From the NCBI GenBank assembly GCA_940747215.1, contig CALNWS010000019.1, positions 476-64,475 on the forward strand: 64,000 nucleotides of DNA, in the 5' to 3' direction. Below are positions 8,965 to 48,522 of the stretch, in pieces. Positions within the stretch are counted from its first letter, which is position 1, and the number at the start of each line of letters is the position of its first letter. The translations under genes and the position numbers were made by a program. The notes below the pieces were generated by a model. The model was given only the letters and a program-made list of their open reading frames with translations, ran no database searches and was not told the origin of the DNA. Source of the DNA: an uncultured Paraburkholderia sp. (GTDB lineage: Bacteria; Pseudomonadota; Gammaproteobacteria; Burkholderiales; Burkholderiaceae).

Positions 8965-9163
8965 GGAAGTGAGGGCAGTTTGATACAGGTGTTACGTATA
9001 TTGCGTGCCGCGTTCGGCAGTGCAACATGTTAGCGTGGCATAATAGCTTATTTGAAGTGCAGTGATCGCGTCGAGTGGCTTCGGGGGCTACCGGCACGCG
9101 CTACAGGCAATGCGTTCCGCGATATTGCAATACAACAGGATGGCTCTGGTGAACGGAGAAAGC

Positions 9164-10080
9164 ATGTCGTCTTTTGCCCATGCGCAACAAACAGTCCGTG
9201 CGCTCGTTACCGGTGCGAGCGGTTTCACGGGCCGTTATCTGGTCGAAAAGCTGCTCGGTCGCGGTCATACCGTGAGCGAAACTTTTGCCGGCCGCGAAGA
9301 GGCCGAAACGCCGACGCGCGTGCGCCTCGACATCACGTCGCCGGACGCATGCCGGCGCGTGATCGACGCCACGTGGCCCGATTACATCGTGCATCTGGCT
9401 GCAATCAGCTTCGTGGGTCATAGCGATCCGCTCGACTTCTATCGCGTGAACGTTATGGGCACGCTGAATCTGCTCGAAGCGTGCGGCGCCGTCGGCCATA
9501 CGCCGCGCAAGCTGCTGATCGCGAGCAGCGCGAACGTCTACGGCAACGTGACGAGCGACGCCATCGACGAAACCTTCCCGGTCACACCCGTCAATCACTA
9601 CGCGGCGAGCAAGGCGGCCATGGAAACCATGGTGCGCACGTGGTTCGACCGTCTGCCGATCCTGATCGTGCGGCCGTTTAACTACACGGGCCGTGGCTAA
9701 GTGCCGAACTTCCTCGTGCCGAAGATCGGCGAGCATTTCGCACGCCGCGAGTCGTCCATTGAACTGGGCAACATCGACGTCGCGCGCGATTTCTCCGACG
9801 TGCGCTACGTGGCGAACGCCTACGAAGCGCTGCTCGATTTCGACGTCGCGGCGGAAACTGTTAACGTATGCACAGGCAAGCCGTACACGCTGCGCGAAAT
9901 TCTCTCGGCCGCAAGCGAGCTGACCGGCCACGAACTGAAAATCCAGATCAACCCAGCGTTCGTGCGTAAAACCGACGTGAAGATGCTCGCCGGTTCGCCC
10001 GCCAAGTTGCGCTCGCTCGTGCCGCAGATCGAGTCCATTCCGCGTTCATGGACACGTTGCACTGGATGCTTGCGGCCTGA
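9164..10080 (+). pseudogene. NAD-dependent sugar-nucleotide epimerase/reductase (Rmd / GDP-6-deoxyhexose reductase-like SDR), disrupted
   Basis: RBS GGAGAA then the ATG at 9164. VRALVTGASGFTGRYL (Rossmann fold) ... NHYAASKAAME (YxxxK) ... PFNYTGRG, then an in-frame TAA at 9698-9700. The same frame continues VPNFLVPKIGEHFARRESSIELGNIDVARDFSDVRYV.... A 2-nt CG duplication near 10041-10044 shifts the last about 12 codons (expected ...IPFMDTLHWMLAA*, stop at 10078-10080). Confidence 0.7.
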
Positions 10081-10289
10081 CGGGCCGCTTCCGAGTCGGC
10101 GTCTCACGTCTACACGTCTGCACCGGCATCGCGGCGCAGCCTTCCCATTCCGCTGACGAAACTGGCCCGCGACTCGCACAGAGCCTCAATTTGCGCTCGT
10201 AAAACGGCTTGATGCAGAGCCTGTGAGCGCGCGCTCGATGTACTTTCTCGCGCCAATGGAAACCAAACTTGTCAAGCTGTTTCAAGTTG

Positions 10290-14200: not shown

Positions 14201-15616
14201 GTGAGTTTGTTACCGATCATTCTGTGTGGCGGTGTGGGATCGCGGCTCTGGCCGGTTTCGCGCGAGTCGCACCCGAAGCCGTTCATTCGTCTCGCAGACG
14301 GCGAAAGCCTGCTGCAAAAGGCGTTTTTGCGTGCAGTCGGTTTGCCCGGCGTGAAGGAAGTGCTGACGGTAACGAACCGCGATCTGTTCTTCAAGACCGA
14401 AGACGATTTTCGCGAAGTGAACGCGAAAGGCTGCGCCACCTCGTTCATTCTGGAACCGTTCGGACACAATACCGCAGCGGCAGTTGCTACGGCCGCGTTG
14501 CACGCGGCCAGGGTGCACGGCGACCAGACGGTCATGCTGGTGCTCGCCGCCGACCATCTGATCGCCGACCAGACCGCGTTCGCGTTGGCGGTGGCGGAAG
14601 CCACGAAGCTCGCGCAGGCGGGCAAGGTGGTCACGTTCGGCGTACATCCGGAAACGCCCGAAACCGGCTACGGCTACATCGAGGCGGACGGCGACAAGGT
14701 GGTCGCGTTCATCGAGAAGCCGTCGCTCGACAAGGCGCGCGAGTATCTGGCCTCGGGCCGCTTCGTCTGGAATTCGGGCATGTTCTGCTTCGCGGCGGGC
14801 ACGATCCTGAAGGAGATGCAGCAGCACTGTCCGGACATTCTCGCGGCGGCGGCGGACTGCATGGAGAAGTCGCCATCGGCGGCGGGCAAGGACGGCGCGC
14901 AGGTGCGGCTCGAACCGGCTTCGTTCGGCGCGGTACCGGAGCTCTCGTTCGATTACGCCGTGATGGAGAAGTGCCGGCAGGCGGCCGTGGTCCGCTGCAA
15001 CATCGGCTGGACGGACGTGGGTTCGTGGACGGCGCTGAGCGACCTGTCGCCGGCCGACAGCAGCGGCAATCGCGTGGAAGGCGAGGCATTACTCGTCGAC
15101 GTGAACAACTGCTACGTGCGTGGCGGCGAGCGGCTGATCGGCGCGGTGGGAATCAACAACCTGATCGTGATCGACACGCCCGACGCACTACTGGTGGCGA
15201 AGCGCGACCGCGCGCAGGACGTGAAGCAGATTTTCGCCGAACTCAAATCGCGCGGCCACGAAACCTACAAGGTGCATCGTAAGGTGCACCGGCCGTGGGG
15301 CACGTATTCGGTGCTCGAAGAAGGACCGCGTTTCAAGATCAAACGCATCGAGGTCAAGCCGGGCGCGAGTCTCAGTTTGCAGATGCATCATCACCGCAAC
15401 GAACATTGGGTGGTAGTGAGCGGCATGGCCAAGGTCGTCAACGGAGAGCGGGAATTCTTCGTGTCGACCAACGGATCGACCTACATCCCCGCGGGACATA
15501 AGCATTGCCTCGAAAATCCGGGCGTCGTCGAGCTCGTGATGATCGAAGTGCAAAGCGGCGAGTATTTGGGCGAAGACGACATCGTCCGCTTTGAAGACAT
15601 TTACGGACGTACTTGA
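14201..15616 (+). CDS. manC: Mannose-1-phosphate guanylyltransferase / mannose-6-phosphate isomerase (type II PMI-GMP)
   Basis: 471 aa from a GTG start. LPIILCGGVGSRLWPVSRESHPKPF... is the N-terminal nucleotidyltransferase domain. ...RPWGTYSVLEEGPRFKIKRIEVKPGASLSLQMHHHRNEHWVVVSG is the C-terminal cupin domain. Confidence 0.92.
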   Translation: MSLLPIILCGGVGSRLWPVSRESHPKPFIRLADGESLLQKAFLRAVGLPGVKEVLTVTNRDLFFKTEDDFREVNAKGCATSFILEPFGHNTAAAVATAALHAARVHGDQTVMLVLAADHLIADQTAFALAVAEATKLAQAGKVVTFGVHPETPETGYGYIEADGDKVVAFIEKPSLDKAREYLASGRFVWNSGMFCFAAGTILKEMQQHCPDILAAAADCMEKSPSAAGKDGAQVRLEPASFGAVPELSFDYAVMEKCRQAAVVRCNIGWTDVGSWTALSDLSPADSSGNRVEGEALLVDVNNCYVRGGERLIGAVGINNLIVIDTPDALLVAKRDRAQDVKQIFAELKSRGHETYKVHRKVHRPWGTYSVLEEGPRFKIKRIEVKPGASLSLQMHHHRNEHWVVVSGMAKVVNGEREFFVSTNGSTYIPAGHKHCLENPGVVELVMIEVQSGEYLGEDDIVRFEDIYGRT

Positions 15617-15617
15617 G

Positions 15618-16436
15618 ATGGATATCAGTTTTAGCAACGAGACCGAAAATCTGACGCAGCACACCGAAACCGACGACCTGCTCGTCGGCATGAAATCGGT
15701 GCGCGTGTGGGGCACGCTCGGCTGGCACGACATTCGGCAGCGTTATCGCCGTTCGGTGCTCGGGCCGTTCTGGTTCACGCTCAGCACGATCATCATGGTG
15801 GTGGTGCTTGGGGCGTTGTACTCCACGCTGCTGCATCAGAAGATTTCGAATTACCTGCCGTACCTCGCCGTGGGCCTTGTGGTGTGGGCATATCTCGCGG
15901 CAGTGGCGAACGAAGGCTGTCTCGCGTTCATCGGCGCGGCGTATCTGATCAAGCAGATCAGGCTGCCGCTCACCATTCACGTGTGCCGCATCGCGTGGCG
16001 CAATTTCGTGATCCTGCTGCACAGCCTGCCGGTGGTCGTGGTGCTGCTACTCGCATTCGGGCGCTGGCCCGGCTGGGAATTCCTGCTCGTGCCGTTCGCG
16101 CTCTTCATGCTGCTGCTGCACGGCGTGTGGCTCGGCGTGTGGCTCGGCGTGCTGTGCGCGCGCTTTCGCGACATTCCGCCTATCGTCACCAACCTGATCC
16201 AGGTCGTGTTCTTTTTCACGCCCGTCATGTGGTCGCCGGAAATTCTGAAAGACCGCGCGTGGGTCGCCGAATACAACCCGCTCTACCATCTGATCGAAAC
16301 GGTGCGCGCACCGCTCGCCGGCCGTCCGACTCACTGGGAGTCGTGGGCGTGGTCGATTGGTCTGTTAGTGGTCGGCTTTGTGTTCGCGCAACTGCTGATG
16401 AAACGTTTCCGTAATCGCGTTCCTTACTGGCTTTGA
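15618..16436 (+). CDS. wzm: ABC-2 type polysaccharide/O-antigen export permease
   Basis: 272 aa. WHDIRQRYRRSVLGPFWFTLS is the ABC-2 signature, followed by 6 hydrophobic segments. Sits immediately upstream of the ATPase. Contains an in-frame 12-bp tandem repeat (GVWLGVWLGV). Confidence 0.88.
   Translation: MDISFSNETENLTQHTETDDLLVGMKSVRVWGTLGWHDIRQRYRRSVLGPFWFTLSTIIMVVVLGALYSTLLHQKISNYLPYLAVGLVVWAYLAAVANEGCLAFIGAAYLIKQIRLPLTIHVCRIAWRNFVILLHSLPVVVVLLLAFGRWPGWEFLLVPFALFMLLLHGVWLGVWLGVLCARFRDIPPIVTNLIQVVFFFTPVMWSPEILKDRAWVAEYNPLYHLIETVRAPLAGRPTHWESWAWSIGLLVVGFVFAQLLMKRFRNRVPYWL
16121..16151 (+). repeat. 12-bp tandem repeat (about 2.6 copies of CGGCGTGTGGCT) inside wzm
   Basis: Read directly: cggcgtgtggct cggcgtgtggct cggcgtg. 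It is in frame and encodes GVWL-GVWL-GV within a predicted TM helix. Confidence 0.9.
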
Positions 16437-16440
16437 TATT

Positions 16441-17217
16441 GTGAGTTCTTCATCGATTATTGCTCGTAACATCTCGGTCGAATTTCCGATTTACGAGAAC
16501 TCCCATCGCTCACTGAAAAAAGCGGTGCTCAATCTCACGACGGGTGGCCGCATCGGCCAGGACGCCGGCCGCCATGCGATCGTCCGCGCGATCGACGACC
16601 TGAGCTTCAGCTTCACCGAAGGTACGCGCGTAGGTCTCGTCGGCCATAACGGCTCGGGCAAGACCACGCTGCTGCGCACGCTCTCGGGTGTCTATGCGCC
16701 GGTGCGCGGCGAACTCAAGGTGCAAGGCAAGATTGCCTCGCTCCTCGACGTCTCCATGGGCCTCGATCCGGACGCAACCGGCTTCGAGAACATCTATCTG
16801 CGCGGCATTCTCGACGGCCTGAAGCCGGCGCGTATCCGCAGCAAGATCGACGAGATCGCCGACTTCAGCGAACTGGGCGATTACCTGAATCTGCCGGTAC
16901 GCACGTATTCGAGCGGGATGATGCTGCGCCTCGCGTTCGCCATTTCCACGAGTGTCGAAGCCGACATCCTCATCATGGACGAGTGGCTGAGCGTGGGCGA
17001 CGCGGAGTTCAGCCTGAAGGCCGCGCAACGCCTCGAGAGTCTGGTGGGCAAGGCATCGGTGCTGGTGGTGGCGTCGCACGATCCGGCGCTGGTGGCGCGG
17101 GTGTGCAACCGCAAGATCCTGATGGAACAGGGCAAGATGATTTCCGACGAGCCTGTGTTACCGCCAGTTGAAAGCGAAGGTCAGCTCGTCAGCCAGTCTG
17201 CGCATTTGCCGCATTAA
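16441..17217 (+). CDS. wzt: Polysaccharide/O-antigen export ABC transporter ATP-binding protein (short form, no C-terminal carbohydrate-binding domain)
   Basis: 258 aa from a GTG start. Walker A GHNGSGKTT, signature YSSGMMLRLAF, Walker B ILIMDE. Only about 40 aa follow the NBD. Confidence 0.88.
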   Translation: MSSSSIIARNISVEFPIYENSHRSLKKAVLNLTTGGRIGQDAGRHAIVRAIDDLSFSFTEGTRVGLVGHNGSGKTTLLRTLSGVYAPVRGELKVQGKIASLLDVSMGLDPDATGFENIYLRGILDGLKPARIRSKIDEIADFSELGDYLNLPVRTYSSGMMLRLAFAISTSVEADILIMDEWLSVGDAEFSLKAAQRLESLVGKASVLVVASHDPALVARVCNRKILMEQGKMISDEPVLPPVESEGQLVSQSAHLPH

Positions 17218-17294: not shown

Positions 17295-18677
17295 ATGCGA
17301 GCTAATCATCCGTTTCTGCGGTATTCCGAATCCGTGCTGGTTCGCCAGCTGTTCCGCACGCTCAAGGGTTTCGCGGGCGGCTATATCGCCTATCCGATCG
17401 CCGAGAGCCGCGAAAAACGCAGCGTGCGTCCGAAGATCGAGGAATTGCGTCAGCACTACATCTTGCCGATGCCGCACCGCAAGCGCATCGCGCTGGAGCG
17501 GCTTGCCGCCATGCTCGAATTCGCCGGCGCCAAGGTGCCGTACTACCGCGATCTGTTCCAGGCAAAGCAGTTCGATCCGGCCAAGGTCAAGGACGATCCG
17601 CGCTATCTGGAAGAGCTGCCGTATCTGACCAAGGACATCATTCGCGAGCAGGGCGCGCGCATGTTGTCGGCACCGCTCGAAGCTGGCCGTCATCACGTCT
17701 GCAAGACGGGCGGCTCGACGGGCCTGTCCACCGTTATCTACTACGACCAGGAAGGCGCGGACTATTCGTCGGCCGTCACGTCGTACGCACGTGAGCGCAT
17801 CGGCAAGCTGCGTCATCGCTCGGAGCTTCACTTCGCATGCCGCTTTCCGGATCAAGTGATTCCGGAGTGGCCGTCGCGCGAAGACTTCAAATGCTTTGCG
17901 ATGAACCGCAGCAACATTTTCTTCGACCGGATCGACGATCAGGGCCTCGAAGAAATGTGGCAAACGCTCAAGCGCCGCAAGCCGTATCTCGCGCACTCGC
18001 ATCCGTCCACCATGTACGCGCTCGCCTGCTACGTGCAGCGCAAGTACGGCGGCGGCAAGGCATTCCAGGTATTCGAATCGAGCGGCGAACTGCTCGAACC
18101 GCACGCACGCGAAATAATCGCGAAAGCGCTGTGCTGCCGCGTGATCGACCGTTACGGTCTCGCCGAACTCGGCGTGATGGCCTACGAACTTGACGGTCAC
18201 GAAGGCGGCTTCCAGATTCTCGAATCGGAAGGCTGGCCGGAAAGCCGCGTGTCCGAGGGTAATCCCGAAGGCGCGCACGAACTCGTGTTCACCGGCTTCC
18301 GCAACAGGCTGATGCCGCTCGTGCGTTACGCGACCGGCGACCTCGCGCGCGTGCAGGAAACCAGCAAGGGCTTTTATCTGACCGACGTGGTGGGCCGCAT
18401 TCATGACATCGTGCCGATCAACGGCGTCGCGCATCCCACGCACCACATTCAGGACATGCTGGATCACCGCGTCGGCGGGATTCAGGAGTTCCAGATCGAT
18501 TTGCGCACGTCGCCGCCCACGCTGCGCATCGTGCTCGAACCGCACGCGAATGCCGACGAAACGACGGCCAAGCTGCGCCACTTCTGGCAGGACGCGTTCA
18601 CGATTGCCTACATCGGTCACGACGATCTGGTGCGCATGGGCAGCCGCGCGAAGTTCCGTCACGTGGTGACTGCATGA
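17295..18677 (+). CDS. Adenylate-forming enzyme of the phenylacetate-CoA ligase / F390-synthetase (PaaK, 'CapK'-type) family
   Basis: 460 aa, uninterrupted. P-loop-like KTGGSTGLS (the T/S-S-G-S/T-T-G adenylation motif), ...YATGDL..., and a C-terminal ...GSRAKFRHVV. Embedded in the glycan operon, with a stop/start overlap to the next gene. Confidence 0.65.
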   Translation: MRANHPFLRYSESVLVRQLFRTLKGFAGGYIAYPIAESREKRSVRPKIEELRQHYILPMPHRKRIALERLAAMLEFAGAKVPYYRDLFQAKQFDPAKVKDDPRYLEELPYLTKDIIREQGARMLSAPLEAGRHHVCKTGGSTGLSTVIYYDQEGADYSSAVTSYARERIGKLRHRSELHFACRFPDQVIPEWPSREDFKCFAMNRSNIFFDRIDDQGLEEMWQTLKRRKPYLAHSHPSTMYALACYVQRKYGGGKAFQVFESSGELLEPHAREIIAKALCCRVIDRYGLAELGVMAYELDGHEGGFQILESEGWPESRVSEGNPEGAHELVFTGFRNRLMPLVRYATGDLARVQETSKGFYLTDVVGRIHDIVPINGVAHPTHHIQDMLDHRVGGIQEFQIDLRTSPPTLRIVLEPHANADETTAKLRHFWQDAFTIAYIGHDDLVRMGSRAKFRHVVTA

Positions 18678-20251
18678 TTGGCGTTGCCTACCAGCATGCT
18701 TCGACGCAAGCCGGCCAGCTCGTGCTGGCGGCGCTGCGCCGTTCGGTCAGCGCTACGCAGGCGCAAGCCGTCTCGCGCGGCATGCTGCGCCAGAGCGCGG
18801 CGGACGTCGTGGTGGCCGTCGACGCGCCGGACGGCTGGAGCGCCGACTTGATCGCGTGGGTGCGCGCGCGTCCGCGCAAGCTGGTAGTGTTCGGCCATAT
18901 GCCGATCGCGCTCGCCGAATATCTCGGCTATCGCGCTGCGAACGCGTTCGCGGAGCTGGAGGCGGCAAGCCACAGCGCGCCGGCGCTTTCGCGTGAGTCG
19001 CGTGAAAGCGCGGCGGCGGTGCGCTACGGCGCGCTTGCGAAAACGCTCGGTGGCGACGCATGGGATCGTCCGTTCGAACGTTTCGATTTCACCGACGAGT
19101 GGAACAACCTAGGCTACGGCGCCATTCGCGGCGACGGCTCGATCTGGGCCGTGGGTCAGCCCATGAACGTGCCCGCCGACGCCGAACTCGCGGCGGTGTG
19201 CATCGACGGCGAGCGGCGCTTTTCGTATGCCGCGCTCTCAAACGTGGGTGGCTCTAGCGTGCTGTGGTTCAACCGCGCGGTGGGTCCGTGCGATTCGTTC
19301 GAATGGCGCCTCGTCGAAAATTTCCTGTCCAGTTATCACGCAGACAGGCTGCCCTGTCAGCCCGTGCTGAGCGAGCTGCCGTGGGGCTACGACGCGGCGA
19401 TCACGTCGCGGCTCGATTGCGACGAAAGCGTCGAGGCGTCGCGCCCGCTGTGGCAGGCCTATCAGCGTCTCGGCGTGCCGTTCTCGCTCGCGGTTCACAC
19501 GCAGAATCTGAGCCGCCCGGAGCATCACGCCATTCTACGCGAGCTTCTCGCCAACCGTGAACGGGGCGCCGTGCTGTCGCACACCGCAACGCACGTGCCG
19601 AATTGGGGCGGCTCGTATGAAAACGCGCTCGCGGAAGCCGCGCAGTCGGCGAGTCTGCTCGAAGCCGTGACGGGCGTGCCGGTGCGCTACGGCGTCTCGC
19701 CGTTTCACCAGTCGCCGCCGTATGCCATGCGCGGTCTTGCCGACGCCGGTTTCGAAGGCTGCGTGGGCGGCATCATCCGCAACGATCCCGAGTTTCTGAG
19801 CGCACGCGCGGGCACACTGGCCGACATGCCCGAAGGTTTCGTCGCGCACAGCCAGCAGTGCATGTTGCACGGCGAATGCATGCTCGGCAAAGACGATCCG
19901 CTCGCGGTGTTCAAGCAGGCTTTCGACTACGCGTACGCCACAAACACGCTCTTCGGCTATCTCGATCATCCTTTCTCCGAGCGTTACTCGTACGGCTGGA
20001 CCGACGAAGCAGAGCGCATCAAGGCACACGAAGACTTCATCGCTTACATGCGCGGCAAGGCGCGCAGACTACTGTTCCTGCACGAGGACGCGGCGCTCGA
20101 CTTCCTGCGCGCCCGCTCGCTCACACAGGTGGTCGGCGCGAACGGAGACTTCGAGATCATCACGTCTGCCGGCGACATCACGCCGCTCACGCTCGGCGTC
20201 GAATATCGCGGCGAACTCACACCGGTCGAGGCCGGGAAGCCGCTGCAATGA
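18674..20251 (+). CDS. Two-domain protein: unknown N-terminal domain (about 230 aa) plus a polysaccharide-deacetylase-like (CE4/NodB-like) C-terminal domain
   Basis: 525 aa, uninterrupted. ITSRLDCDES (Asp-Asp/Glu-type metal motif), VLSHTATHVP (HxxxH-type motif), YGVSPFHQ. The assignment rests on motif resemblance only. Confidence 0.5.
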   Translation: MIGVAYQHASTQAGQLVLAALRRSVSATQAQAVSRGMLRQSAADVVVAVDAPDGWSADLIAWVRARPRKLVVFGHMPIALAEYLGYRAANAFAELEAASHSAPALSRESRESAAAVRYGALAKTLGGDAWDRPFERFDFTDEWNNLGYGAIRGDGSIWAVGQPMNVPADAELAAVCIDGERRFSYAALSNVGGSSVLWFNRAVGPCDSFEWRLVENFLSSYHADRLPCQPVLSELPWGYDAAITSRLDCDESVEASRPLWQAYQRLGVPFSLAVHTQNLSRPEHHAILRELLANRERGAVLSHTATHVPNWGGSYENALAEAAQSASLLEAVTGVPVRYGVSPFHQSPPYAMRGLADAGFEGCVGGIIRNDPEFLSARAGTLADMPEGFVAHSQQCMLHGECMLGKDDPLAVFKQAFDYAYATNTLFGYLDHPFSERYSYGWTDEAERIKAHEDFIAYMRGKARRLLFLHEDAALDFLRARSLTQVVGANGDFEIITSAGDITPLTLGVEYRGELTPVEAGKPLQ

Positions 20252-23931: not shown

Positions 23932-24984
23932 ATGACAAACATGACATCAAGTACCCCCAGCAAACCTCACTCAATTGCCGTCGTCATTCCGAGCTATAAG
24001 GTGCGCGCGCACATTCTCGGCGTGATCGCGAAGATCGCCCCGGAAGTGGAGAGGATTTACGTGGTCGACGACTGCTGTCCCGACAGCAGCGGCACGTTCG
24101 TCGAAAGTCATTGCGACGACGCGCGCGTGCGTGTGGTCCTGCATACGGTGAATCAGGGTGTCGGCGGCGCGGTGATGACGGGTTATGAGGCGGCGATTGC
24201 CGACGGTGCAGACGTCATCGTGAAAGTGGACGGCGACGGCCAGATGGACCCGGCTCTGCTGCCGCAATTCATTCTGCCGATCGTCGAAGGCTGGGCCGAT
24301 TACACGAAGGGCAACCGCTTCTACGATCTGACGCACATCACCCACATGCCGGCCATGCGTCTGATCGGCAACGCGGGTCTGTCGATCATGACGAAGATTT
24401 CCACGGGCTACTGGACGATCTTCGATCCGACCAACGGCTACACGGCGATCAATGCGCGCACGGCGGCGCATCTGCCGTTCGATCGCATCAGCAAGCGCTA
24501 TTTCTTCGAAACGGACATGCTGTTCCGCCTGAATACGCTGCGCGCCGTGGTGGCCGATATTCCGATGGACGCCGTGTACGGCGACGAAAAGTCGAACCTG
24601 AAGATCGGCCAGGTGCTGTTCGAATTCATGGGCAAGCACGCGAAGAACCTCGCGAAGCGCATCTTCTACAACTACTTCCTGCGCGACATGACGGCGGCGA
24701 CCTTCGAGCTGATCGTCGGCGTCGTGCTGTTCGTGTTCGGCGTGTGCTTCGGCATTGTGCACTGGATCAGCGCGCTGGCCACCGCCACGCCTACGCCGCT
24801 CGGCACGATCATGCTCTCGGCGTTGCCCGTGCTGATCGGCTTGCAATTCCTGCTGGGGTTCCTCAATTTCGACGTCGCCAACGTGCCCTCGCGGCCCATC
24901 AGCCCGTTCCTGCCGTTACGGCCACGAGCCGCACGCGAACCGTTGAAGGCCGAAAACGAGGCGCAGCTCGATCCCATCGAATAA
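23932..24984 (+). CDS. GT2 polyprenyl-phosphate glycosyltransferase (GtrB/ArnC/DPM1-like) with C-terminal TM helices
   Basis: IAVVIPSYKV...VVDDCCPDSSG...VKVDGDGQMDP (DxD) ...TGYWTIFDPTNGY.... This is followed by two hydrophobic helices (FELIVGVVLFVFGVCFGIVHWI, IMLSALPVLIGLQFLLGFL). Confidence 0.8.
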   Translation: MTNMTSSTPSKPHSIAVVIPSYKVRAHILGVIAKIAPEVERIYVVDDCCPDSSGTFVESHCDDARVRVVLHTVNQGVGGAVMTGYEAAIADGADVIVKVDGDGQMDPALLPQFILPIVEGWADYTKGNRFYDLTHITHMPAMRLIGNAGLSIMTKISTGYWTIFDPTNGYTAINARTAAHLPFDRISKRYFFETDMLFRLNTLRAVVADIPMDAVYGDEKSNLKIGQVLFEFMGKHAKNLAKRIFYNYFLRDMTAATFELIVGVVLFVFGVCFGIVHWISALATATPTPLGTIMLSALPVLIGLQFLLGFLNFDVANVPSRPISPFLPLRPRAAREPLKAENEAQLDPIE

Positions 24985-25072
24985 GTCTGCTTGCCGTGGC
25001 GGGTGCTCCGATTGCGTTCGGAGCACCCCACGCGCAAGCGCCATTCATTCTGCTTTACTGACCGTACAGAGC

Positions 25073-25423
25073 ATGACTCCACTTCAAACCCTCTACGCTA
25101 TTGCCTGCGCCTGCATCATCGCCATCGGACAGATCGCCTTCAAGAAAGCCGGCATGGAAGTGCAAAGCGCCGGGACGTGGTTCTCGCCGCGCGCGATGAT
25201 CACGATCTGCTTCGCGCTCGCCATTTACGCGGTCGCCACGCTGCTGTGGATCAACCTGCTGCGCTTCGTCAATCTGAACCGCGCGTATTCGTTCATGACG
25301 CTGTGCTTCATCATCGTGCCGCTTGCGAGCCATTTCGTGTTCAAGGAACACATCACGCCGGGATACGCGATCGGCACGGCGCTCGTCGTGCTCGGTCTTT
25401 TCGTCGCGACGCGCTTCGGCTAA
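25073..25423 (+). CDS. Small 4-TM DMT/SMR-like membrane protein (ArnE/ArnF-like candidate polyprenyl-P-sugar flippase)
   Basis: 116 aa with four hydrophobic segments. GQIAFKKAG and NLNRAYSFMTL resemble EamA/ArnE-ArnF motifs. It lies between the GT2 and the giant membrane protein. Confidence 0.6.
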   Translation: MTPLQTLYAIACACIIAIGQIAFKKAGMEVQSAGTWFSPRAMITICFALAIYAVATLLWINLLRFVNLNRAYSFMTLCFIIVPLASHFVFKEHITPGYAIGTALVVLGLFVATRFG

Positions 25424-25448
25424 AGCAGATTTACCGGCCCGGCGTCGA

Positions 25449-25482
25449 CATGGGCAGCTCTCAAGCATGGGCAGCTCTCAAG
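25449..25482 (+). repeat. Perfect 17-bp tandem duplication (CATGGGCAGCTCTCAAG x2) 11 nt upstream of the 835-aa ORF start
   Basis: Read directly: catgggcagctctcaag catgggcagctctcaag, in the 69-nt intergenic gap 25424-25492. Confidence 0.95.
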
Positions 25483-25492
25483 ACTACGGAAC

Positions 25493-28000
25493 ATGCGCAA
25501 GCTTCTGATCACACTCTGCACGCTTCTCACGTGCCTGCATCTGACCAACGCATTCGCAGCCGAAGCCGAAGCGCCTGCCGCGGGCCGCGCGTTTCTCGAT
25601 GCGGTTGCCGTCGCTTCCACCACGCACACGATGCAGCTCGTGGTTTGGGCCGTGGTGCCGGGCGGCAAGGTGGGCGTGCCGACGCTGCATGTGTTCGTCG
25701 ATCAGCAGGAAGTGTATGTGGGCACCGCACAGCAGCAGGTTCGGCCGGACGTCGCCAAGGCAACCGGCCACGCCGAGTGGGCCAACGCGGGCTGGGTGGC
25801 GAGCGTGCCGTTGCCGGCCAGCGTCGGTCCGGGTACGGACAGCCTGCTCGTGCGCGTTCAGTTCGGCGCTTACGTCTGTATGGACAGCCGCCCGTCGTCG
25901 CCGCAAAACGCGTCGATCAGCATTCCCGAGCCGAAGTCGTTCACGCGAGAGATCTGGGGCGTGCTATTGAGTTTCGCCGTCGTGCTCGGCAGCTACTTCT
26001 TCGCGCCTTTGTTAAGCCGTACGCTGTCGCGCGTCACGGGCCGCGCGGTCGCGCCGCAGGCGTCGCCCGTGCTCGGTCTTCTGATCTGCTTTGCGCTTTT
26101 CGTCGGCTTCGGCGTGTCGGGCACGTCGGTTCACGAAACGGAAGGTGCGTCGCTGCCCATTCAGGGCATCCGCACGACGGTGATTGCGGGCGAGAGCCGG
26201 CCGATCCGCAGCGATGAATGGCTCGTGTTGTCGACAATGGCGATCGGACAGGTGCGCGCCGATCCCGCATTTCCGGTCGTGAACAAAGACGTCGGCCCCG
26301 ACGGCCAGAACATGCTGGTAGTCGGCATGACGTCGGTGCCGGTGCTCGACGTTTCCGCGTTGGGGCGCCCCGCCACGTGGGGCTACTTCTTCCTGCCGCT
26401 GCCTCAGGCGATGGCGTGGCACTGGTGGTTCCCTGCGTTCGCGTGCGTACTTGGATTGTGGGCATGCCTGTCGCTGCTGCTTCCCGGACGCTGGCGCACG
26501 ACGCTCGTGCTGTCGTTATGTTTCGTGCTGTCGCCGTATGTCGTCGCGTGGTCGTACTGGCCCGCGTACGTCACCCTGTTCGCCGCCACCGCATTTGTGG
26601 CGGTCGTTACCTTGCTCAAGGACGGCAACCGGCTGTTGAAGCCGTTGCTGGCGGCGGTGGTGGGCATTAGCGCGGGCGGCTTCGCGCTGACGCTCTATCC
26701 CGCGTGGCAGGTGCCGCTCGCTTATCTGTTCGCGCTGCTGCTGGTGGGCGTGGCGGTGCGCGACTGGCGCTCGCTCAGGTTCTCCGTCGGTAACATCGCG
26801 TGGCTCGTGCTCGGGCTCGTGCTGGCGGGTGTCATCGTCGGATCGTGGTGGCTCCATGCGCGCGACGCGGTGGCGGCGATGGTCGTGACGATCTATCCGG
26901 GACAGCGTACAGCGGTGCCGGGCGGCGGCATCGAGCCGTGGTACATGGCGCGCGGCTTCACCAATTTCAGGACGCTGTATTCGGACCTGCAAGGCTTCAC
27001 GAATCAGAGCGAGGTGTCGTCGTTCCTGTATTTCTTCGTGCCGGCGCTCGTAGGCGCGGTGTTCAATCGCGCGCACTCCGGCCGCAACAAGCCGGTGTTC
27101 TACGCGATCCTCGCCTTCATGGCGCTGACGTTCTGGTATCAGTACATCGGCTTTCCCGTCGCGCTGGCCAAGCTGACGCAATGGGGCCGCTCGTTCCCGA
27201 CGCGTGCCGATATCGCGCTCGGCGTGGCGTCGTTCGCGCTGCTCGGACTCGCGCTCGCGAAAGAGGGCGGAGAAGCGCGCGAATCGCATCCGCTGCCTTT
27301 GGAGCGCATCGGCGCGTGCATCGCGGCGGCGGTGTGGGTCGCGATTCTCTACTGGAGCATGCGGGAAATGCCTGGCCCGATCGCCGGTTTGATGGACCGG
27401 CCGCGCATGGTGCTGATGCTCGTCGTGATCGGCTGGTGTTCGTATGCGCTCGCGTCGCGCTGGTCCGGCGCGTTCCTCGCGTCGCTGCTTGCGCTGCTGC
27501 TTTTCACGACCGCCGCCTTCAATCCGTGGACGGTCATCACGGCGTCCGCCCAGCCGAAGCCCGCCGTGGGCAGTTGCGCGATGGGCGATGGGCGCACGCT
27601 GGTGCTCGGTTCGCACGTGCCGGCCATGACCTTGATGGCCTCCGGCTGCGAGGTGCTCGATGGCGTGTCCTACTATCCGCAGATGTCGCTGTGGCACAAG
27701 CTGGATCCGGGCGGACAGCAAAGCCAGGTCTACAACCGCTATATGCATCTGCTCGTCGACGTGGGCGATCTGCACGGCTCGCCGGCCGCGCAGATCATGA
27801 CGCCGCAAAGCGACGTGGTTCGCATGACACTCGACCCCAAAGGCTTCGACTTCGTGCAGTTGCCAATTGCCTACGTGCTGGTGCGCGCGGACATCGCGGC
27901 CGCGCTCGAGTCGAATCCTTCGTTGCAGAAAATGACACCGCTCTCGGCCGTGTGGTCGCGTTTCAAGGTGGTCCGCAAAGACGCGAACGGCCAGTCCTAA
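25493..28000 (+). CDS. Large polytopic membrane protein, candidate GT-C-type periplasmic glycosyltransferase (835 aa), uncharacterised
   Basis: Signal peptide MRKLLITLCTLLTCLHLTNAFA. Then an about 130-aa beta-rich segment and roughly 13-15 hydrophobic segments. An acidic loop motif RPIRSDEWLV follows the second TM. The C-terminal about 170 aa form a soluble domain. Uninterrupted ORF. The GT-C assignment is inferred from architecture and context. Confidence 0.5.
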   Translation: MRKLLITLCTLLTCLHLTNAFAAEAEAPAAGRAFLDAVAVASTTHTMQLVVWAVVPGGKVGVPTLHVFVDQQEVYVGTAQQQVRPDVAKATGHAEWANAGWVASVPLPASVGPGTDSLLVRVQFGAYVCMDSRPSSPQNASISIPEPKSFTREIWGVLLSFAVVLGSYFFAPLLSRTLSRVTGRAVAPQASPVLGLLICFALFVGFGVSGTSVHETEGASLPIQGIRTTVIAGESRPIRSDEWLVLSTMAIGQVRADPAFPVVNKDVGPDGQNMLVVGMTSVPVLDVSALGRPATWGYFFLPLPQAMAWHWWFPAFACVLGLWACLSLLLPGRWRTTLVLSLCFVLSPYVVAWSYWPAYVTLFAATAFVAVVTLLKDGNRLLKPLLAAVVGISAGGFALTLYPAWQVPLAYLFALLLVGVAVRDWRSLRFSVGNIAWLVLGLVLAGVIVGSWWLHARDAVAAMVVTIYPGQRTAVPGGGIEPWYMARGFTNFRTLYSDLQGFTNQSEVSSFLYFFVPALVGAVFNRAHSGRNKPVFYAILAFMALTFWYQYIGFPVALAKLTQWGRSFPTRADIALGVASFALLGLALAKEGGEARESHPLPLERIGACIAAAVWVAILYWSMREMPGPIAGLMDRPRMVLMLVVIGWCSYALASRWSGAFLASLLALLLFTTAAFNPWTVITASAQPKPAVGSCAMGDGRTLVLGSHVPAMTLMASGCEVLDGVSYYPQMSLWHKLDPGGQQSQVYNRYMHLLVDVGDLHGSPAAQIMTPQSDVVRMTLDPKGFDFVQLPIAYVLVRADIAAALESNPSLQKMTPLSAVWSRFKVVRKDANGQS

Positions 28001-28041: not shown

Positions 28042-28896
28042 CTAGAACGGCAGGCCGGGCCCTTCGTTGGCGGCGCTTGCTTCCATGTGCCGCCAGCTGT
28101 TCACGATGTGCGACTTGTCCGTGGACGGCTGCAGCGCGACGAAAAACTCCATGTCGTTGCGCTCGGTGTAGAAGAAGTTGCCGCAGGCGAAGTCGATCAG
28201 ATCGAGCTTCGCCATCTCGCGGAACAGGCGCGCAAAGGAGCCGGCGTGAACACCCAGCAGTGCACGTCGTGATAGGCACCGTTTTCGAGGCTGTCGCGCG
28301 CCACGCCCATTGCCGTGTCGAACGTGGGATGGCGCTCGGTGGTTACGGGGTCGAGCGGTCCTTTCCACGCAAGACCGCAGTCCACCTTCGCGGCATTCAG
28401 ACAGAAGTCGATCAGGATTTCGGATTGAGGCACGCGCGCATGCACGAGATTGCAATGCAGCACGCCGGCCATACGCGTTTCGTTGCGGAAGTAGTCGAAC
28501 GTGTAGCGCTTGTCCGCACGATGAGCCGCACTTCGCCGCCCGGATTCAGCACGGAGCGCAACTCGTGTAACCACGCCACGAGATCGGGCACATGCTCGAT
28601 GACATGCGACGCCACGATGTAATCCACGCGCCGTCCGCCGAGCGCTTCCTGCAACGTGCTCGCGCCCCACACGGCATCCACGTGAACGATGCGCGCGACA
28701 TCCACCTTGGGATCGTCCTTATATTTTTCCTGCAGCGTGGCGGTGTCCGCATGATCGACGTAGAGCACCGGGCCGTCTTCTTTCAGCAGAAACGGCCTGC
28801 ATAGCGCGCCGATTTCCAGACCGACGCAATCCTTCTGACCAGTCCAGCAAGCAGTTTTTCTTTCCGGGTGAACGGGGCACGCTGCGCAGCATTCAT
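28042..28896 (-). pseudogene. Class I SAM-dependent methyltransferase (Methyltransf_11-like plus C-terminal domain), frameshifted
   Basis: Pieces lie in three frames. (1) ATG 28896: MNAAQRAPFTRKEKLL.... (2) GLEIGALCRPFLLKEDGPVLYVDHADTATLQEKYKDDPKVDVARIVHVDAVWG...DYIVASHVIEHVPDLVAWLHELRSVLNPGGEVRLIV. (3) PDKRYTFDYFRNETRMAGVLHCNLVH...HDVHCWVFTP, after a missing C near 28516-28520. (4) SFARLFREMAKLDLIDFACGNFFYTERNDMEFFVALQP..., after a shift near 28240. Confidence 0.7.
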
Positions 28897-30038: not shown

Positions 30039-30926
30039 TTAGCGGGTCTTTCTGATCCAGAAACTCGCGCCGGGATTGTTCATGAAACAAGGCAATTTCC
30101 CGCGCATGGAGTCGCCGTGGAAATGGCCCATGAACGTATTCATGAGCACGATTTCAAACGTGCTGTTGTACTGAAGGAATGCACGCAGCAGATACGCTTC
30201 GTTCTACGCGCGGCCTTTGTAGATCCATTGCGCGGGATATTCGAGCGGCAGGAACACGTCGTGGAAATGGATATGGACGTCGGACGCGAGCATCGGCAGG
30301 ATTTCGAAGACGATGCGGTTCACGTCGCTATCGAGCTTGCTGACGTGCGACGAATCGACGAACAGAATGTCGTTCGCTTCGAGCTCCGTGAAGACCGACA
30401 GCAGCCGTTCGTTGTTCGGCTCGACGAACGTGCATTGAATCTTGCCGATCGAAGAAAAGATCGTTCGTGTCGAGCGAAACCGCGGACGAAAAGCCGGAGC
30501 CGATTTCGACGATACGGCGTGGCCTCAGATGACGGATCATGCAGTAGAGCGAAGTGGCATCGCCACACGAAAACATCACGTTTTCGAAATAGAAACGCAG
30601 TCCTTCCTGCTTGTGCTGACCGAAGGGCATGTCGCCATAATATTTTTCGGCGAATTCCTCGACCAGCGCGAGTTGCTTCTCTTCGTTGAAATCGATTGCA
30701 GGCAGTGTTCGCAAAACGCTATTGAAAAACCGTGCCTCGGCCTTTTTACCTCGGGGATCGAAGGGATTGGCGAATAGTAATGCCCGGGAGGCACGTTGCC
30801 GAGATTCTCGAAGTACGGAACATTCGCCCACAATTCGTCGCGGTATTTGTCGCGCTCGGCGATGAGACTGGCTACTTCGGGATATTGCGATGCTAAGGAG
30901 TTCAGGCGATCGTTCGACAAGGACAT
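30039..30926 (-). pseudogene. SAM-dependent methyltransferase (Methyltransf_24-like, HYYSPIP motif), disrupted
   Basis: MSLSNDRLNSLASQYPEVASLIAERDKYRDELWANVPYFENLGNVPPGHYYSPIPSIPEVK is followed by a frameshift in an A5/T5 run (30743-47). Then KAEARFFNSVLRTLPAIDFNEEKQLALVEEFAEKYYGDMPF...RIVEIGSGFSSAVSLDTNDLFF, then a frameshift near 30447-52. Then IGKIQCTFVEPNNERLLSVFTELEANDILFVDSSHVSKLDSDVNRIVFEILP...YKGRA, then an in-frame TAG (complement of 30203-30205, a Trp position). It ends NEAYLLRAFLQYNSTFEIVLM.... Confidence 0.72.
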
Positions 30927-31376: not shown

Positions 31377-32366
31377 ATGCATTTCAGGATTCTTCTGACC
31401 ACTCACAGCACCGCGTTCATGACGAGCGGCGGGGGTGAGTCAGAACTCGTGCAGGTTGCCGAGTTGCTCAACGACGCCGGCGTGCAGGCGGACATCTACG
31501 GTATCCGCAGCAGGCCGCTGCGCTTTTACGACGCGGTCATGCATTTCTCCGTGAATGCCGACGGCGAGGCGATGATCCGCGAGATCGTGCAGTACGGCAA
31601 AACGTTGCTGCTGTGGCCGAACGTGTGGTGGCTCACGCCGCCCGACGCCGCCGAAATCGCGCGGATCGAGAGCATCGCGCGGCGCGCGGACCGGCTCTTC
31701 TTCAAGTCGGTCACCGAGCGCGATCACTTCCTCACGTACATCGCGGTCGAGCCCGCCAAGTGCTCGGTGGTCGGCACCGGCATATCTGACCGGTTCCTCG
31801 CGCCGGCCGATAAAGATTTACTGCCCACGGTCTGCGACGTCTCCGATTACGTGCTGTGTCTCGGCCTTATCGAGCCGATGAAAAACCAGCTCGAACTCAT
31901 TCGCGCGCTCAACAGCCTCGAACTGAACGGCCTGATGATGGGCGGCTTCAGAGATGAGGCGTATTACCGGCGGTGCGTGGCCGAGGCGCATCGCGGCATC
32001 CATTTTCTGCCGTTCATCCAGCCGTGCAGCGCGCTTCTGCGCTCGGCGTTCGCCAACGCGCTGGTGGTGGCCGAGCCGAGCTTCGATCCGCCGGGGCGTT
32101 CGTGCCTCGAGGGCGCGTACATGAAGAAGCCGCTTGTCATGGTAGATGGGGATTGGCAACGCGAACACTTCGATGACAATGTCTGGTACACGGCGTCTAC
32201 TAGCGCATCGGACATCGTTCCCGCCATCCGCGCGGCACTTGCCGACGCGAGCCGGGACGAGAAGATCGAAAGCAACTACGAATGCGTCTATGCACGGCAC
32301 TCGTCGAGCACGGTAGCAACTGATCTTATCAAATACCTGATCGATGCCGGCCTCACAAACTACTAA
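31377..32366 (+). CDS. Glycosyltransferase, GT-B fold (GT4-like)
   Basis: 329 aa. MHFRILLTTHSTAFMTSGGGESELVQV... is a typical GT4 N-terminus. The C-terminal half carries ...EPSFDPPGRSCLEGAYMKKPLV. Uninterrupted. Confidence 0.75.
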   Translation: MHFRILLTTHSTAFMTSGGGESELVQVAELLNDAGVQADIYGIRSRPLRFYDAVMHFSVNADGEAMIREIVQYGKTLLLWPNVWWLTPPDAAEIARIESIARRADRLFFKSVTERDHFLTYIAVEPAKCSVVGTGISDRFLAPADKDLLPTVCDVSDYVLCLGLIEPMKNQLELIRALNSLELNGLMMGGFRDEAYYRRCVAEAHRGIHFLPFIQPCSALLRSAFANALVVAEPSFDPPGRSCLEGAYMKKPLVMVDGDWQREHFDDNVWYTASTSASDIVPAIRAALADASRDEKIESNYECVYARHSSSTVATDLIKYLIDAGLTNY

Positions 32367-34949: not shown

Positions 34950-35944
34950 CTACTTTTTCGTGGCGATGAGCGTAGTGGAACTGGCGAGCGCCAGGTTTTT
35001 CTCCGGGCTCAGATTCTTGACGAACGGGCGGTCGAGCAGCGCGGGCGCACCGTTCAGCAGGTCCGCAACCGTCAGCGTCTTGAAGTCGGCGAGCGCTTCT
35101 TCGTCGAGTCCTTCCGCCCAGTCGTTTGCAATCCACACCAGCGTCCAGACCGGCGACGTAGAGATCGGCACGTACACTTTGCTCACGTCGATCGACGGCG
35201 TTAACAGATTCAGAATGCCCTTGGCCGTCATGTTGTAGTAGTGGTGCGGAAGCCGTGCGTGGGTTGCGTGAGCGGCACCACGACGACGAGATCGCCGCCC
35301 GGCTTCAGCACACGCAGCAATTCTCTAGCGGCCGTGAACGGGTCTTTCACATGCTCCAGCACTTTGAGCGACAGCACGGCGTCGAACGAGTTGTCGACGA
35401 AGGGCAGCACTTCGCCCACGCCGCGAACGTCAGTGGACGGATACGCGCTGATCTTGAAGTTGACCACGTTGTCGAATATGAGCGGGTGGCTTCCCGCGCC
35501 GCAGTCGAGAATCAGATCGTCGCGGTGATGCTCGATCACGGCGAGCGCGTCGCCGTCGTACAGATTCTCAACGATCAGCTCGGAATCGTGGATGTCGAAC
35601 TTTGCCTTCAGTTCCGGGCTGAGAAAGTCGAACAGACGTCCGTAGTCGGCATAGGGAAGGGACTTGTCCAGCAGCGCTTCGATGCGGGCGCGGCACTTTT
35701 GCCGTTCCTCACGCGCGATGTCCACGGCCTGTTTGCGATGCGCTTCCTTGTGGCCGAACAGATCGAAATGCATGTGGCCCGATGCGATCGACCCGGCGCG
35801 TACGGCTTCGGCGACATCGGCGTTGGTGGCGAGATAGGCGCGCTCGCAGAAACTCAGTCGGGTGATGGACTCCAGCGACGGCGATGATTCGTGTGCGTTG
35901 CCGTCGTGTGTGCGCAGATCTTGCATAAGGCTCCTCGTCATCAA
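34950..35944 (-). pseudogene. SAM-dependent methyltransferase (Methyltransf_11-like), single frameshift
   Basis: The 238-aa ORF reads ...LILDCGAGSHPL...FDAVLSLKVLEHVKDPFTAARELLRVLKPGGDLVVVVPLTQPTHGF and then runs into a stop. Restoring one C/G in the run at about 35246-35249 gives FPHHYYNMTAKGILNLL.... That joins it to the following 93-aa ORF (34950-35231), which has no independent RBS. Confidence 0.7.
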
Positions 35945-47424: not shown

Positions 47425-48522
47425 TCAGCGACGCGACCTCCGCACCACCATCCAGCGAGGCGACTTGAACCGCACGATGCTCACGTAAAGCCAGACATAC
47501 GTCGCGGCAAACACCATCACGAAGCAGAACAGATGCAGCGTGTGCCGCCAGAACAGCGTGGCGGGCACCACGGCGATCAGACACAGCAGCCACAGATACG
47601 GCGACGTGAGCGAGTTGCGGCGCGTCAGTTCGCGCGCGGTGCGTGTGCCAACCGCCCAGTGCATCAGACGCTTGTAGACGAGCATGTGCAGATGCACGCC
47701 GTCGGGAATACCCGGCGACATGCCGCGAATGAATTTTTTCCGGTAGATCGAGAAACACGTCTCGAAGATCGGATACATTAAGAGCAGAATCGGATACCAC
47801 GCCGACACGTCGCGATTGCGCATCACGAGCATGATCGACAGTTCGGCGAGCATGAAGCCGATGAAATAGGCACCGCCGTCACCGAGAAAAATTAGACCGG
47901 CCGGGAAATTCCAGATGAAGAAGCCGAGCACCGCGCCCATCATCATGAACGACGCCGACAGCACGATCGGATCGGACACTTGGAACGCCACGTAGGCGAG
48001 CGAGGCGAACATCATGAAGGCGACCATCGACGCGAGGCCGTTGAAGCCGTCGATGATATTGATCGCGTTGGCGAGCGCGGTGACCGCGAGCACCGTGACC
48101 GCACACGAAATCACCGCGTACGAGAGCAGGAAATCGAGCGGCGGCACGCTGATGCGCGTGACGGCGATGTTCAGCATGAAGTACGCGAGCGCGGCGGCGG
48201 CCATCGTGCAGACGAACCGCACGAGTGGCGACACGCGCTTGGTCAGATCTTCGATGAGGCCAGAACCGAACGCGGGCATGCCGCACGCGATCAGCCCGAG
48301 AATGCCGTCCGACACGGCCGGATACGCGTGATGCAGTTGCACGGCGGAGACAATCAGCCCGAGCAGAATTCCCGTGCCGCCGATGCGCGGCACCGGACGC
48401 GCGTGAAACTTCTGTACGCCGCCCAGATCGGTGTCAGCGAATTTTTCATGCAGATGCGCGTAGCGCACGATCAACAGCGTGATCAGCAGTGAAACGAGAA
48501 AGCCGAGCGCAAAACTAAGCAT
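47425..48522 (-). CDS. Second polyprenyl-phosphate HexNAc-1-P transferase (WecA-like, GT4 family)
   Basis: MLSFALGFLVSLLITLLIV...KFHARPVPRIGG...NIIDGFNGLASM...FLGDGGAYFIGF. The ORF is open to 48573, but the ATG at 48522 fits the first TM helix. Confidence 0.83.
   Translation of the reverse strand: MLSFALGFLVSLLITLLIVRYAHLHEKFADTDLGGVQKFHARPVPRIGGTGILLGLIVSAVQLHHAYPAVSDGILGLIACGMPAFGSGLIEDLTKRVSPLVRFVCTMAAAALAYFMLNIAVTRISVPPLDFLLSYAVISCAVTVLAVTALANAINIIDGFNGLASMVAFMMFASLAYVAFQVSDPIVLSASFMMMGAVLGFFIWNFPAGLIFLGDGGAYFIGFMLAELSIMLVMRNRDVSAWYPILLLMYPIFETCFSIYRKKFIRGMSPGIPDGVHLHMLVYKRLMHWAVGTRTARELTRRNSLTSPYLWLLCLIAVVPATLFWRHTLHLFCFVMVFAATYVWLYVSIVRFKSPRWMVVRRSRR

Follow-up and report, generated by a model that had tools for sequence, protein, structure and literature searches.

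In the Gtr systems (GtrA/GtrB/GtrC) of Shigella and Salmonella serotype-converting phages, a GT2 glycosyltransferase that makes a sugar linked to undecaprenyl phosphate (Und-P) is accompanied by a small flippase candidate with four transmembrane (TM) helices and by a polytopic, periplasm-facing transferase. The Arn pathway (ArnC, ArnE/ArnF and ArnT; GT83) adds 4-amino-4-deoxy-L-arabinose (Ara4N) to lipid A, with ArnE and ArnF being the accepted subunits of the Und-P-Ara4N flippase. Decaprenyl-P-arabinofuranose, a polyprenyl-phosphate monosaccharide, is the donor used at the outer face of the membrane by the arabinofuranosyltransferases AftD and AftA of mycobacteria. The side-branch sugars of O-antigens set serotype, sensitivity to phages and tailocins, and host recognition. 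For O-antigens exported by ABC transporters, three-component modification is established (PMC11127046), and the GT136 system of Citrobacter youngae O1/O2 (Kelly et al. 2024, PMC11127046) and gmlABC of Klebsiella modify the exported O-polysaccharide in the periplasm. With Gtr, Arn, gmlABC and GT136, the periplasmic three-component strategy is already well known. Here, we investigated three consecutive same-strand genes in a stretch of 64,000 nucleotides (hereafter the window) from an uncultured Paraburkholderia sp. (GCA_940747215.1, contig CALNWS010000019.1, positions 476 to 64,475). The open reading frame (ORF) calls of these genes, hereafter the trio, are as follows:

23932-24984, + strand: GT2 polyprenyl-phosphate glycosyltransferase (donor synthase), 350 aa
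25073-25423, + strand: four-TM membrane protein of drug/metabolite transporter (DMT)/small multidrug resistance (SMR) type (EamA, ArnE/F-like), candidate flippase, 116 aa
25493-28000, + strand: GT-C-fold glycosyltransferase candidate (Pfam DUF7657 and DUF7654), 835 aa

We propose that the trio forms a three-component system for the periplasmic glycosylation of a glycan after its polymerisation, operating by synthesis of an Und-P-linked sugar, flipping of this sugar, and its transfer by the GT-C protein onto an exported O-polysaccharide, a reading to which we assign a probability of roughly 75%. A previous sequence-only reading of the window had ascribed Gtr/Arn-like three-component logic to these genes; the ORFs were confirmed here, and each of the assigned roles was upheld. 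What is new is a GT-C from a large family without a characterised member, an N-terminal beta-sandwich lying behind an extra TM helix, and the pairing with just one ArnE/F-like gene in the context of an O-antigen locus.

The trio contains the same three kinds of genes as the Gtr systems, and the model of its GT2 matches GtrB structures (E ~1e-13). In contrast to Gtr, the small protein resembles EamA and ArnE/ArnF and not the GtrA family (PF04138), the GT2 has no sequence-level match to GtrB in the PDB at E <= 1e-3, and the transferase is 835 aa long with two accessory periplasmic domains. The trio is furthermore not phage-borne, as no relative of it was found in the viral contigs of IMG/VR, and its presumed acceptor pathway is dependent on an ABC transporter, whereas that of Gtr is Wzx/Wzy dependent. 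Compared to the Arn pathway, ArnC is the best structural match of the trio GT2 (E 3e-15), the small protein has its closest named relatives in ArnE and ArnF, and ArnT is a significant fold match of the 835-aa protein, which resembles it in its 13-TM core and C-terminal periplasmic domain. However, the 835-aa protein has no detectable sequence relation to ArnT, the trio has one small gene in place of the ArnE/ArnF pair, there are no arnA/B/D-like genes in the window locus or in the Pseudomonas loci, and the trio lies in an O-antigen locus, as opposed to a lipid A modification operon.

AftD and AftA are the best Foldseek matches of the 835-aa model, and use the kind of donor, at the outer face of the membrane, that we propose for this protein, although their identity to it is 12-14% with TM-scores of 0.19-0.44, their decaprenyl-P-arabinofuranose is made by a different pathway than the trio donor, and the accessory domains differ. 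The GT136 and gmlABC systems, which we set beside the trio by their published description (PMC11127046), share with its proposed activity the post-polymerisation periplasmic change of an ABC-exported O-polysaccharide by a GT-C with an extra beta-rich periplasmic domain. In contrast to the GT2 and ArnE/F-like protein of the trio, the GT136 system has a phosphoribosyl pyrophosphate (PRPP)-dependent, UbiA-like donor synthase and a flippase of the multidrug and toxic compound extrusion (MATE) type, and its carbohydrate-binding module is C-terminal, where the beta-sandwich of the trio is N-terminal and behind an extra TM helix.

Predicted structures and families of the three proteins

For the 835-aa protein, which the sequence-only reading had placed in no family, we identified matches to two Pfam families, DUF7657 (residues 196-588, E 4e-96, 322.7 bits against a gathering threshold of 26) and DUF7654 (residues 701-826, E 2e-21, 76.6 bits against a gathering threshold of 27), both of which are uncharacterised. 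All of the homologues checked likewise exceeded the gathering thresholds for these families, and the size of DUF7657 was put at 4,979 representatives with E <= 1e-3, or 2,146 clusters (50% identity) with the stricter E <= 1e-30. We found no match in NCBIfam, and nothing meaningful in the PDB by sequence, whether with the single sequence or with a profile of 84 sequences. A literature search retrieved no paper on DUF7657, nor on the trio in O-antigen studies of the Pseudomonas syringae group. The name 'RgtA/B/C/D-like', given to some homologues in UniRef, was not reproduced in a scan of ten family members for GT-C Pfam families.

An AlphaFold (AF2) model built from 84 homologues was of high predicted quality (predicted local distance difference test score (pLDDT) 93.2, predicted TM-score (pTM) 0.90). 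In a Foldseek comparison with the PDB its only significant matches were AftD (E 7e-5), AftA (E 2e-4) and ArnT (E 3e-4), each with a probability of 1.0, followed by PglB (E 1e-2). All four are GT-C enzymes with lipid-phosphate-linked donors, and structure prediction upheld the presence of a GT-C core. We rejected a transporter or ligase/polymerase (WaaL/Wzy/SEDS) fold, the best match outside of the GT-C enzymes being a major facilitator superfamily (MFS) transporter with a probability of 0.23 and a TM-score of 0.08. From the model, the hydropathy and the positive-inside pattern, we derived the following topology:

25493-25561, + strand: signal peptide or N-terminal anchor, residues 1-23 (...TNAFA/AEAEA); hydrophobic segment 3-23, model helix 2-14, disordered linker 16-28
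25580-25942, + strand: accessory periplasmic all-beta (beta-sandwich) domain, residues 30-150; DSSP strands 32-144, pLDDT ~90
25946-26008, + strand: extra TM helix, residues 152-172, from hydropathy; the next loop (173-186) is short, with three Arg and no acidic residue
26051-27511, + strand: GT-C core of 13 TM helices, residues 187-673, from model helices, hydropathy and the positive-inside pattern
26207-26221, + strand: RSDEW motif, residues 239-243, proposed catalytic acidic site, from conservation and the model
27518-27997, + strand: C-terminal periplasmic alpha/beta domain, residues 676-835 (DUF7654); mixed alpha/beta by DSSP, pLDDT >90, past the 13th core TM helix

A signal peptide, an extra beta-rich domain, 13-15 TM segments, an acidic RSDEW loop and a soluble C-terminal domain had all been read from the sequence beforehand, and were recovered here, with 13 TM helices in the core and one extra. 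The accompanying claim that the protein is far larger than ArnT or GtrC holds for these two enzymes, but 835 aa is not large for GT-C enzymes generally, and this length is reached because accessory periplasmic domains surround a GT-C core of ordinary size.

Across the 84 homologues, R239, D241 and E242 were invariant, and W243 was at least 90% conserved. The RSDEW motif opens a helix (residues 240-255) within the first periplasmic loop (208-302), following TM1, such that a GT-C fold with conserved acidic residues (D241, E242) in its first extracytoplasmic loop is predicted. Further invariant residues were found at a periplasmic turn (Y402, P403 and W405) and in the periplasmic loop after TM7 (T466, Y468, P469, G470 and R472), and, in the predicted topology, no invariant residue of the GT-C lies outside the periplasmic loops and the C-terminal domain.

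The beta-sandwich domain was identified in 62 of the 84 aligned homologues and is limited to long (~830 aa) members of the family; the short-form homologues, of ~665 aa, start at about residues 170-200 of the 835-aa protein. Its Foldseek matches were only immunoglobulin (Ig)-like and insignificant (E >= 0.2), and a local hidden Markov model (HMM) of the domain detected it only in DUF7657 proteins, and in no other neighbouring protein. The beta-sandwich may bind the acceptor glycan, and the extra TM helix is predicted to bring the chain back to the cytoplasm before the canonical TM1 of the GT-C core.

The GT2 had been described as GtrB/ArnC-like with C-terminal TM helices, which our searches bore out. 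It matches PF00535 (E 8e-16), and contains a cytoplasmic GT-A domain with D46-D47 and D100-x-D102, catalytic acidic residues that are invariant in orthologues, and two hydrophobic C-terminal TM helices (residues ~255-316). Its best NCBIfam matches were PpgS, AglJ, PgfS, a dolichyl-P hexose transferase and ArnC, all far below the equivalog cut-offs, and the sole match in a sequence search of the PDB was the dolichyl-phosphate mannose synthase (DPMS) of Pyrococcus (5mlz, E 1.3e-10). The AF2 model of the GT2, built from 64 homologues (pLDDT 89), gave 22 top Foldseek matches in the PDB that were all ArnC, GtrB or DPMS (E 3e-15 to 4e-9), in alignments spanning the full length, membrane helices included. 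We consider its class, a polyprenyl-phosphate glycosyltransferase, to be established. Record names of its relatives such as 'dolichol-phosphate mannosyltransferase' are automatic annotations.

For the 116-aa protein, we identified four hydrophobic segments, and a score of 28.0 bits against Pfam EamA, just under the cut-off of 28.2. EamA was the sole match in a Pfam scan at E <= 0.1, which gave no signal for the GtrA family (PF04138). In NCBIfam it matched ArnF (E 1.4e-10) and ArnE (E 1.6e-9), both under the equivalog cut-offs, and E. coli ArnE aligned with 30% identity across 57 aa (E 8e-7). The protein is accordingly of ArnE/F and DMT/SMR likeness and not of GtrA type, as had been read from its sequence, albeit at scores below the cut-offs. 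The conserved residues in or beside its TM helices include Q20, K24, Y52, W59, P83 and E92. Its gene was found in a single copy per locus in 46 loci, in which it adjoins the GT2 gene, and the protein is presumed to be a homodimer because there is only one such gene. Read from the sequence, its Lys and Arg residues number four on one membrane face and three on the other, a balance that is typical of dual-topology SMR homodimers and by which the protein may be likened to them. Homology and gene linkage make it a candidate flippase of the lipid-linked sugar.

The genes of the trio are separated by gaps of 88 bp (between the GT2 and 116-aa genes) and 69 bp (between the 116-aa and 835-aa genes), and the GT2 may start at the ATG at 23941, since the alignment of the Paraburkholderia strydomiana orthologue begins there. 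The GC content of third codon positions (GC3) was 0.83-0.84 in each trio ORF, matching other real genes of the window, and they thus look like real genes. The window coincides exactly with a contig of an uncultured Paraburkholderia metagenome-assembled genome (protein CPDRYMAC_2689); the exact protein of the window had no entry in the contig index. A scan of 23.5-28.6 kb for promoters and terminators found no promoter-like site, and terminator-like sites only within genes.

Distribution of the trio and of its GT2

We investigated the co-occurrence of the trio in 80 genome loci with a DUF7657 gene, searching for partners within 6 kb. At 40 of these loci an orthologous GT2 (53-86% identical) and a small gene were both present, in five arrangements, and the carriers included Beta- and Gammaproteobacteria and Chlorobi-type metagenome-assembled genomes (MAGs). 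The chance presence of a given gene in a 12-kb neighbourhood of a multi-megabase genome is rare, and the expectation that the trio would co-occur in other genomes was borne out. In 35 loci the GT-C and the donor synthase were tightly linked on the same strand. Wzm and Wzt were found within 6 kb at 24/80 loci, and the direct neighbours of the trio in Pseudomonas alliivorans and P. cremoricolorata are Wzm, Wzt (with Wzt_C), a WbdD-like methyltransferase-glycosyltransferase protein and rml genes. Compared with the window proteins, the GT2 orthologues had a median identity of 62%, the small proteins one of 38% and the GT-Cs one of 35%. The far greater conservation of the GT2 follows the pattern of the Gtr systems, in which conserved donor genes likewise accompany a variable transferase.

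We additionally identified DUF7657 paralogues within individual genomes. Comamonas flocculans (L084, 10001-14866) has two that are adjacent and convergent, beside Wzt; Diaphorobacter caeni (L053/L061) has two DUF7657 genes ~40 kb apart, and Ottowia thiooxydans (L043/L065) also has two, each of these species with one donor pair only. The presence of at most one pair of GT2 and small genes near these paralogues suggests that several transferases share one lipid-linked donor.

Short-form DUF7657 genes were also observed on plasmids of ~110 kb, Pls1 of Pseudomonas sp. R1-18 (L018, NZ_CP071659.1) and NZ_CP047266.1 of Pseudomonas asturiensis (74997-76853). On Pls1 the full trio lies beside Wzm and Wzt, and thus a whole O-antigen-type cluster appears to be plasmid-borne. 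Four GenBank matches labelled as phages were set aside, being UNVERIFIED_ORG, low-GC wastewater contigs. Contigs labelled as Listeria/Enterococcus phages (L166, OR847128.1, and L167, OR846623.1; GC 36-39%) encode DUF7657-like proteins of 667-681 aa with ~25% identity, and are probably bacterial contigs, not phages.

In a reciprocal test, we considered GT2 orthologues from metagenomes (57-69% identical; loci L086-L165), of which 34 had at least 3 kb of sequence on both sides. A large polytopic membrane protein was found next to the GT2 in 33/34 of these loci (for example L095:5380-7659, L103:4020-6590, L116:657-3116 and L110:4686-6857). These neighbours fell into at least 15 clusters unrelated by BLAST, with only 4-5 belonging to DUF7657; among ten that were scanned, two were GT-Cs of the PMT family, one was a DUF6077 protein and seven had no Pfam family. 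The GT2 is not specific to the DUF7657 family, and the diversity of its neighbours indicates that it is a general donor module for diverse GT-C-like enzymes. The polytopic neighbours may constitute a pool of unannotated GT-C-like enzymes, for which the conserved GT2, as a practical genomic marker, would lead to further unannotated periplasmic glycosyltransferases.

Taking these observations jointly, it is possible, although at somewhat less than even odds, that DUF7657/DUF7654 is a new CAZy-level GT-C family, that its tethered beta-sandwich is a new kind of acceptor-binding module, and that the GT2, at 57-69% identity across phyla, makes one common Und-P-sugar feeding no fewer than 15 families of polytopic transferases that are unrelated to each other and for the most part lack annotation. 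If true, Gram-negative bacteria would possess an extensive and hitherto hidden layer of glycan decoration in the periplasm. The DUF7657 family is both large and unstudied, and in plant-associated Pseudomonas, Paraburkholderia and Comamonadaceae its genes are linked to O-antigen loci of the ABC-transporter type; a role for the family would account for O-antigen branches without a known gene, and provide CAZy with another glycosyltransferase family.

Proposed mechanism and alternative explanations

In the mechanism that we propose, the GT2 would move one sugar from a nucleotide sugar to Und-P at the cytoplasmic face, in keeping with the class that its sequence and fold assign to it. Transport of the lipid-linked sugar to the periplasmic face would then fall to the ArnE/F-like protein of 116 aa, probably a homodimer, as its homology and gene linkage suggest. 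According to its predicted fold and topology, the 835-aa GT-C would take the sugar from the lipid at a periplasm-facing site around the R239/D241/E242 loop and, as the conserved genomic context suggests, would add it as a side branch to the O-polysaccharide exported by Wzm/Wzt, before the ligation of this polymer to lipid A-core. Holding the polymer acceptor is probably the task of the N-terminal beta-sandwich together with the C-terminal domain. GT2- and GT-C-type families such as these are usually inverting, and if both enzymes invert, the branch would end up with the same anomeric configuration as the nucleotide sugar, so that a UDP-alpha-D-sugar, for example, would give an alpha branch. 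We infer the sugar donor, the acceptor and the flippase role from such comparisons, and the location of the trio in Wzm/Wzt loci of Paraburkholderia, Pseudomonas and Comamonadaceae supports an O-antigen acceptor.

Several observations weigh against this mechanism, some of which also bear on the alternatives below. The TM-scores of the 835-aa model to AftA and ArnT are modest (0.33-0.34 by query and 0.44-0.46 by target), and values of 0.33-0.46 therefore indicate a kinship with GT-C enzymes at the level of the fold only. A comparison by hhalign of the 84-sequence profile with E. coli ArnT gave a probability of 0.05%, in what is a weak test given the single-sequence template, and the scan of ten DUF7657 family members, taken to E <= 10, returned no PMT, PMT_2 or other known GT-C Pfam family. 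Our literature search found no biochemistry for any DUF7657 member. No sugar-precursor gene was consistently linked to the trio, and the occurrence of several pseudogenes in the O-antigen locus of the window means that this organism may have a changed acceptor polymer. To these are added the 34 of the 80 DUF7657 loci that had neither GT2 nor small gene within 6 kb, and the presence of the small gene at only 14 of the 34 GT2 loci, from which it follows that the small protein is not obligatory.

The 116-aa protein could instead be an accessory subunit of the GT2, on the model of GacJ, the accessory subunit of GacI, or an unrelated small transporter, with flipping being done by something else. 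Its scores lie under all of the curated cut-offs, its gene was missing near the GT2 at 20/34 GT2 loci, and flippase activity is unproven directly even for its relatives and for the class in general (PMC11127046). We nonetheless regard a protein other than a flippase as rather unlikely, given the specific though weak similarity to ArnE and ArnF, the adjacency to the GT2 in 46 loci, and the conserved residues in or beside the TM helices. Even with a flippase, the trio might work alike on an acceptor other than O-polysaccharide, be it lipid A or core, which ArnT, Bordetella LgmB and Rhizobium RgtA-D decorate, or another envelope glycan or a periplasmic protein, for which PMT and PglB are models. 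The fold matches agree with this to some extent, with ArnT among the best three and PglB next, as do the relation of the small protein to ArnE/ArnF, the 'RgtA/B/C/D-like' names of some homologues in UniRef, and the PMT-family proteins that also adjoin orthologues of the same GT2. In contrast, the gene lies within the Wzm/Wzt O-antigen loci named above, no arnA/B/D-like or deacetylase gene was consistently linked to it, and the fast evolution of the GT-C, together with its paralogues within genomes, fits a variable polymer better than the conserved lipid A, rendering such an acceptor improbable.

Finally, the 835-aa protein might not be a side-branch transferase, but act in the ABC-transporter pathway by adding a chain-end cap or adaptor sugar, by aiding ligation or polymerisation, or as a scaffold, with the GT2 and small protein serving another enzyme. 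Compatible with this are 11 of the 34 DUF7657 loci without donor genes, which still have Wzm and Wzt adjacent; the Wzt of the window, which is short (258 aa) and lacks a Wzt_C domain; and the many other polytopic proteins with which the GT2 family partners. The fold matches are, however, GT-C_A-type enzymes using lipid-phosphate sugars, and not WaaL, Wzy or SEDS; the first periplasmic loop contains an invariant acidic motif; in the 35 loci noted above, the GT-C and the donor synthase are close neighbours on one strand; and the addition of a terminal sugar would still be a GT-C glycosyl transfer. We consider such a role to be very improbable, and retain the side-branch transferase as the function proposed for the 835-aa protein.

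The O-antigen locus of the window

Positions 9-48.6 kb of the window form an O-antigen locus of the ABC-transporter type, in the order rmlB, rmlA, manC, wzm, wzt, wecB, GT4 genes, the trio, further glycosyltransferase genes, an epimerase gene, and wbpL-like and wbpM-like genes. Paraburkholderia strydomiana has a syntenic cluster, and comparison with this species identified the degraded genes listed below the exporter:

15591-17217, + strand: Wzm (ABC-2 permease) and Wzt (ATPase), O-polysaccharide exporter (PF01061 and PF00005)
9062-10156, + strand: NAD-dependent epimerase pseudogene, in-frame stop at 9698-9700
28412-28768, - strand: stray methyltransferase fragment, 118 aa
28973-29920, - strand: alcohol dehydrogenase (ADH), internal deletion of ~26 aa relative to the orthologue
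30042-30926, - strand: Methyltransf_24 homologue, four in-frame stops
34953-35926, - strand: frameshifted methyltransferase, split over two frames

The trio had been described as intact in a decaying genome. Both parts of this description stand, the decay being seen at the local scale, where in-frame stops, a frameshift or a deletion affect at least four of the O-antigen genes nearby. Ratios of nonsynonymous to synonymous substitution rates (dN/dS) against P. strydomiana were 0.08 for the GT2, 0.09 for the 116-aa protein and 0.20 for the 835-aa protein, values that are approximate because dS exceeds 1. The trio is intact and under purifying selection while neighbouring genes are pseudogenes. 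Its intactness beside decaying O-antigen genes suggests that the branch sugar is still under selection, perhaps for host interaction, and it is from this intactness and the dN/dS values of 0.08-0.20 that the modification is read as probably important.

We additionally observed several unusual genes elsewhere in the locus. Between wzt and wecB are a gene for a 460-aa protein with weak similarity to PaaK-like acyl-CoA/AMP-ligases (17295-18677, + strand), unusual for an O-antigen locus, and a 525-aa ORF with a strong coding signal and no Pfam or NCBIfam family (18674-20251, + strand); the syntenic 1.6 kb of P. strydomiana (L081, 2964-4567) contains no called gene. A 329-aa ORF of the window (31377-32366, + strand; GC3 0.81), with weak matches to the GT1 family, is in conflict with the gene calls of P. 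strydomiana, in which two small genes (73 and 153 aa; L081, 15136-15921, - strand) are called opposite to it, both of which can be aligned with the window as well. At the end of the locus, two genes for polyprenyl-phosphate sugar-1-phosphate transferases of the WecA/WbpL/MraY type (PF00953; 44384-45415, + strand, and 47425-48573, - strand) flank the wbpM-like gene.

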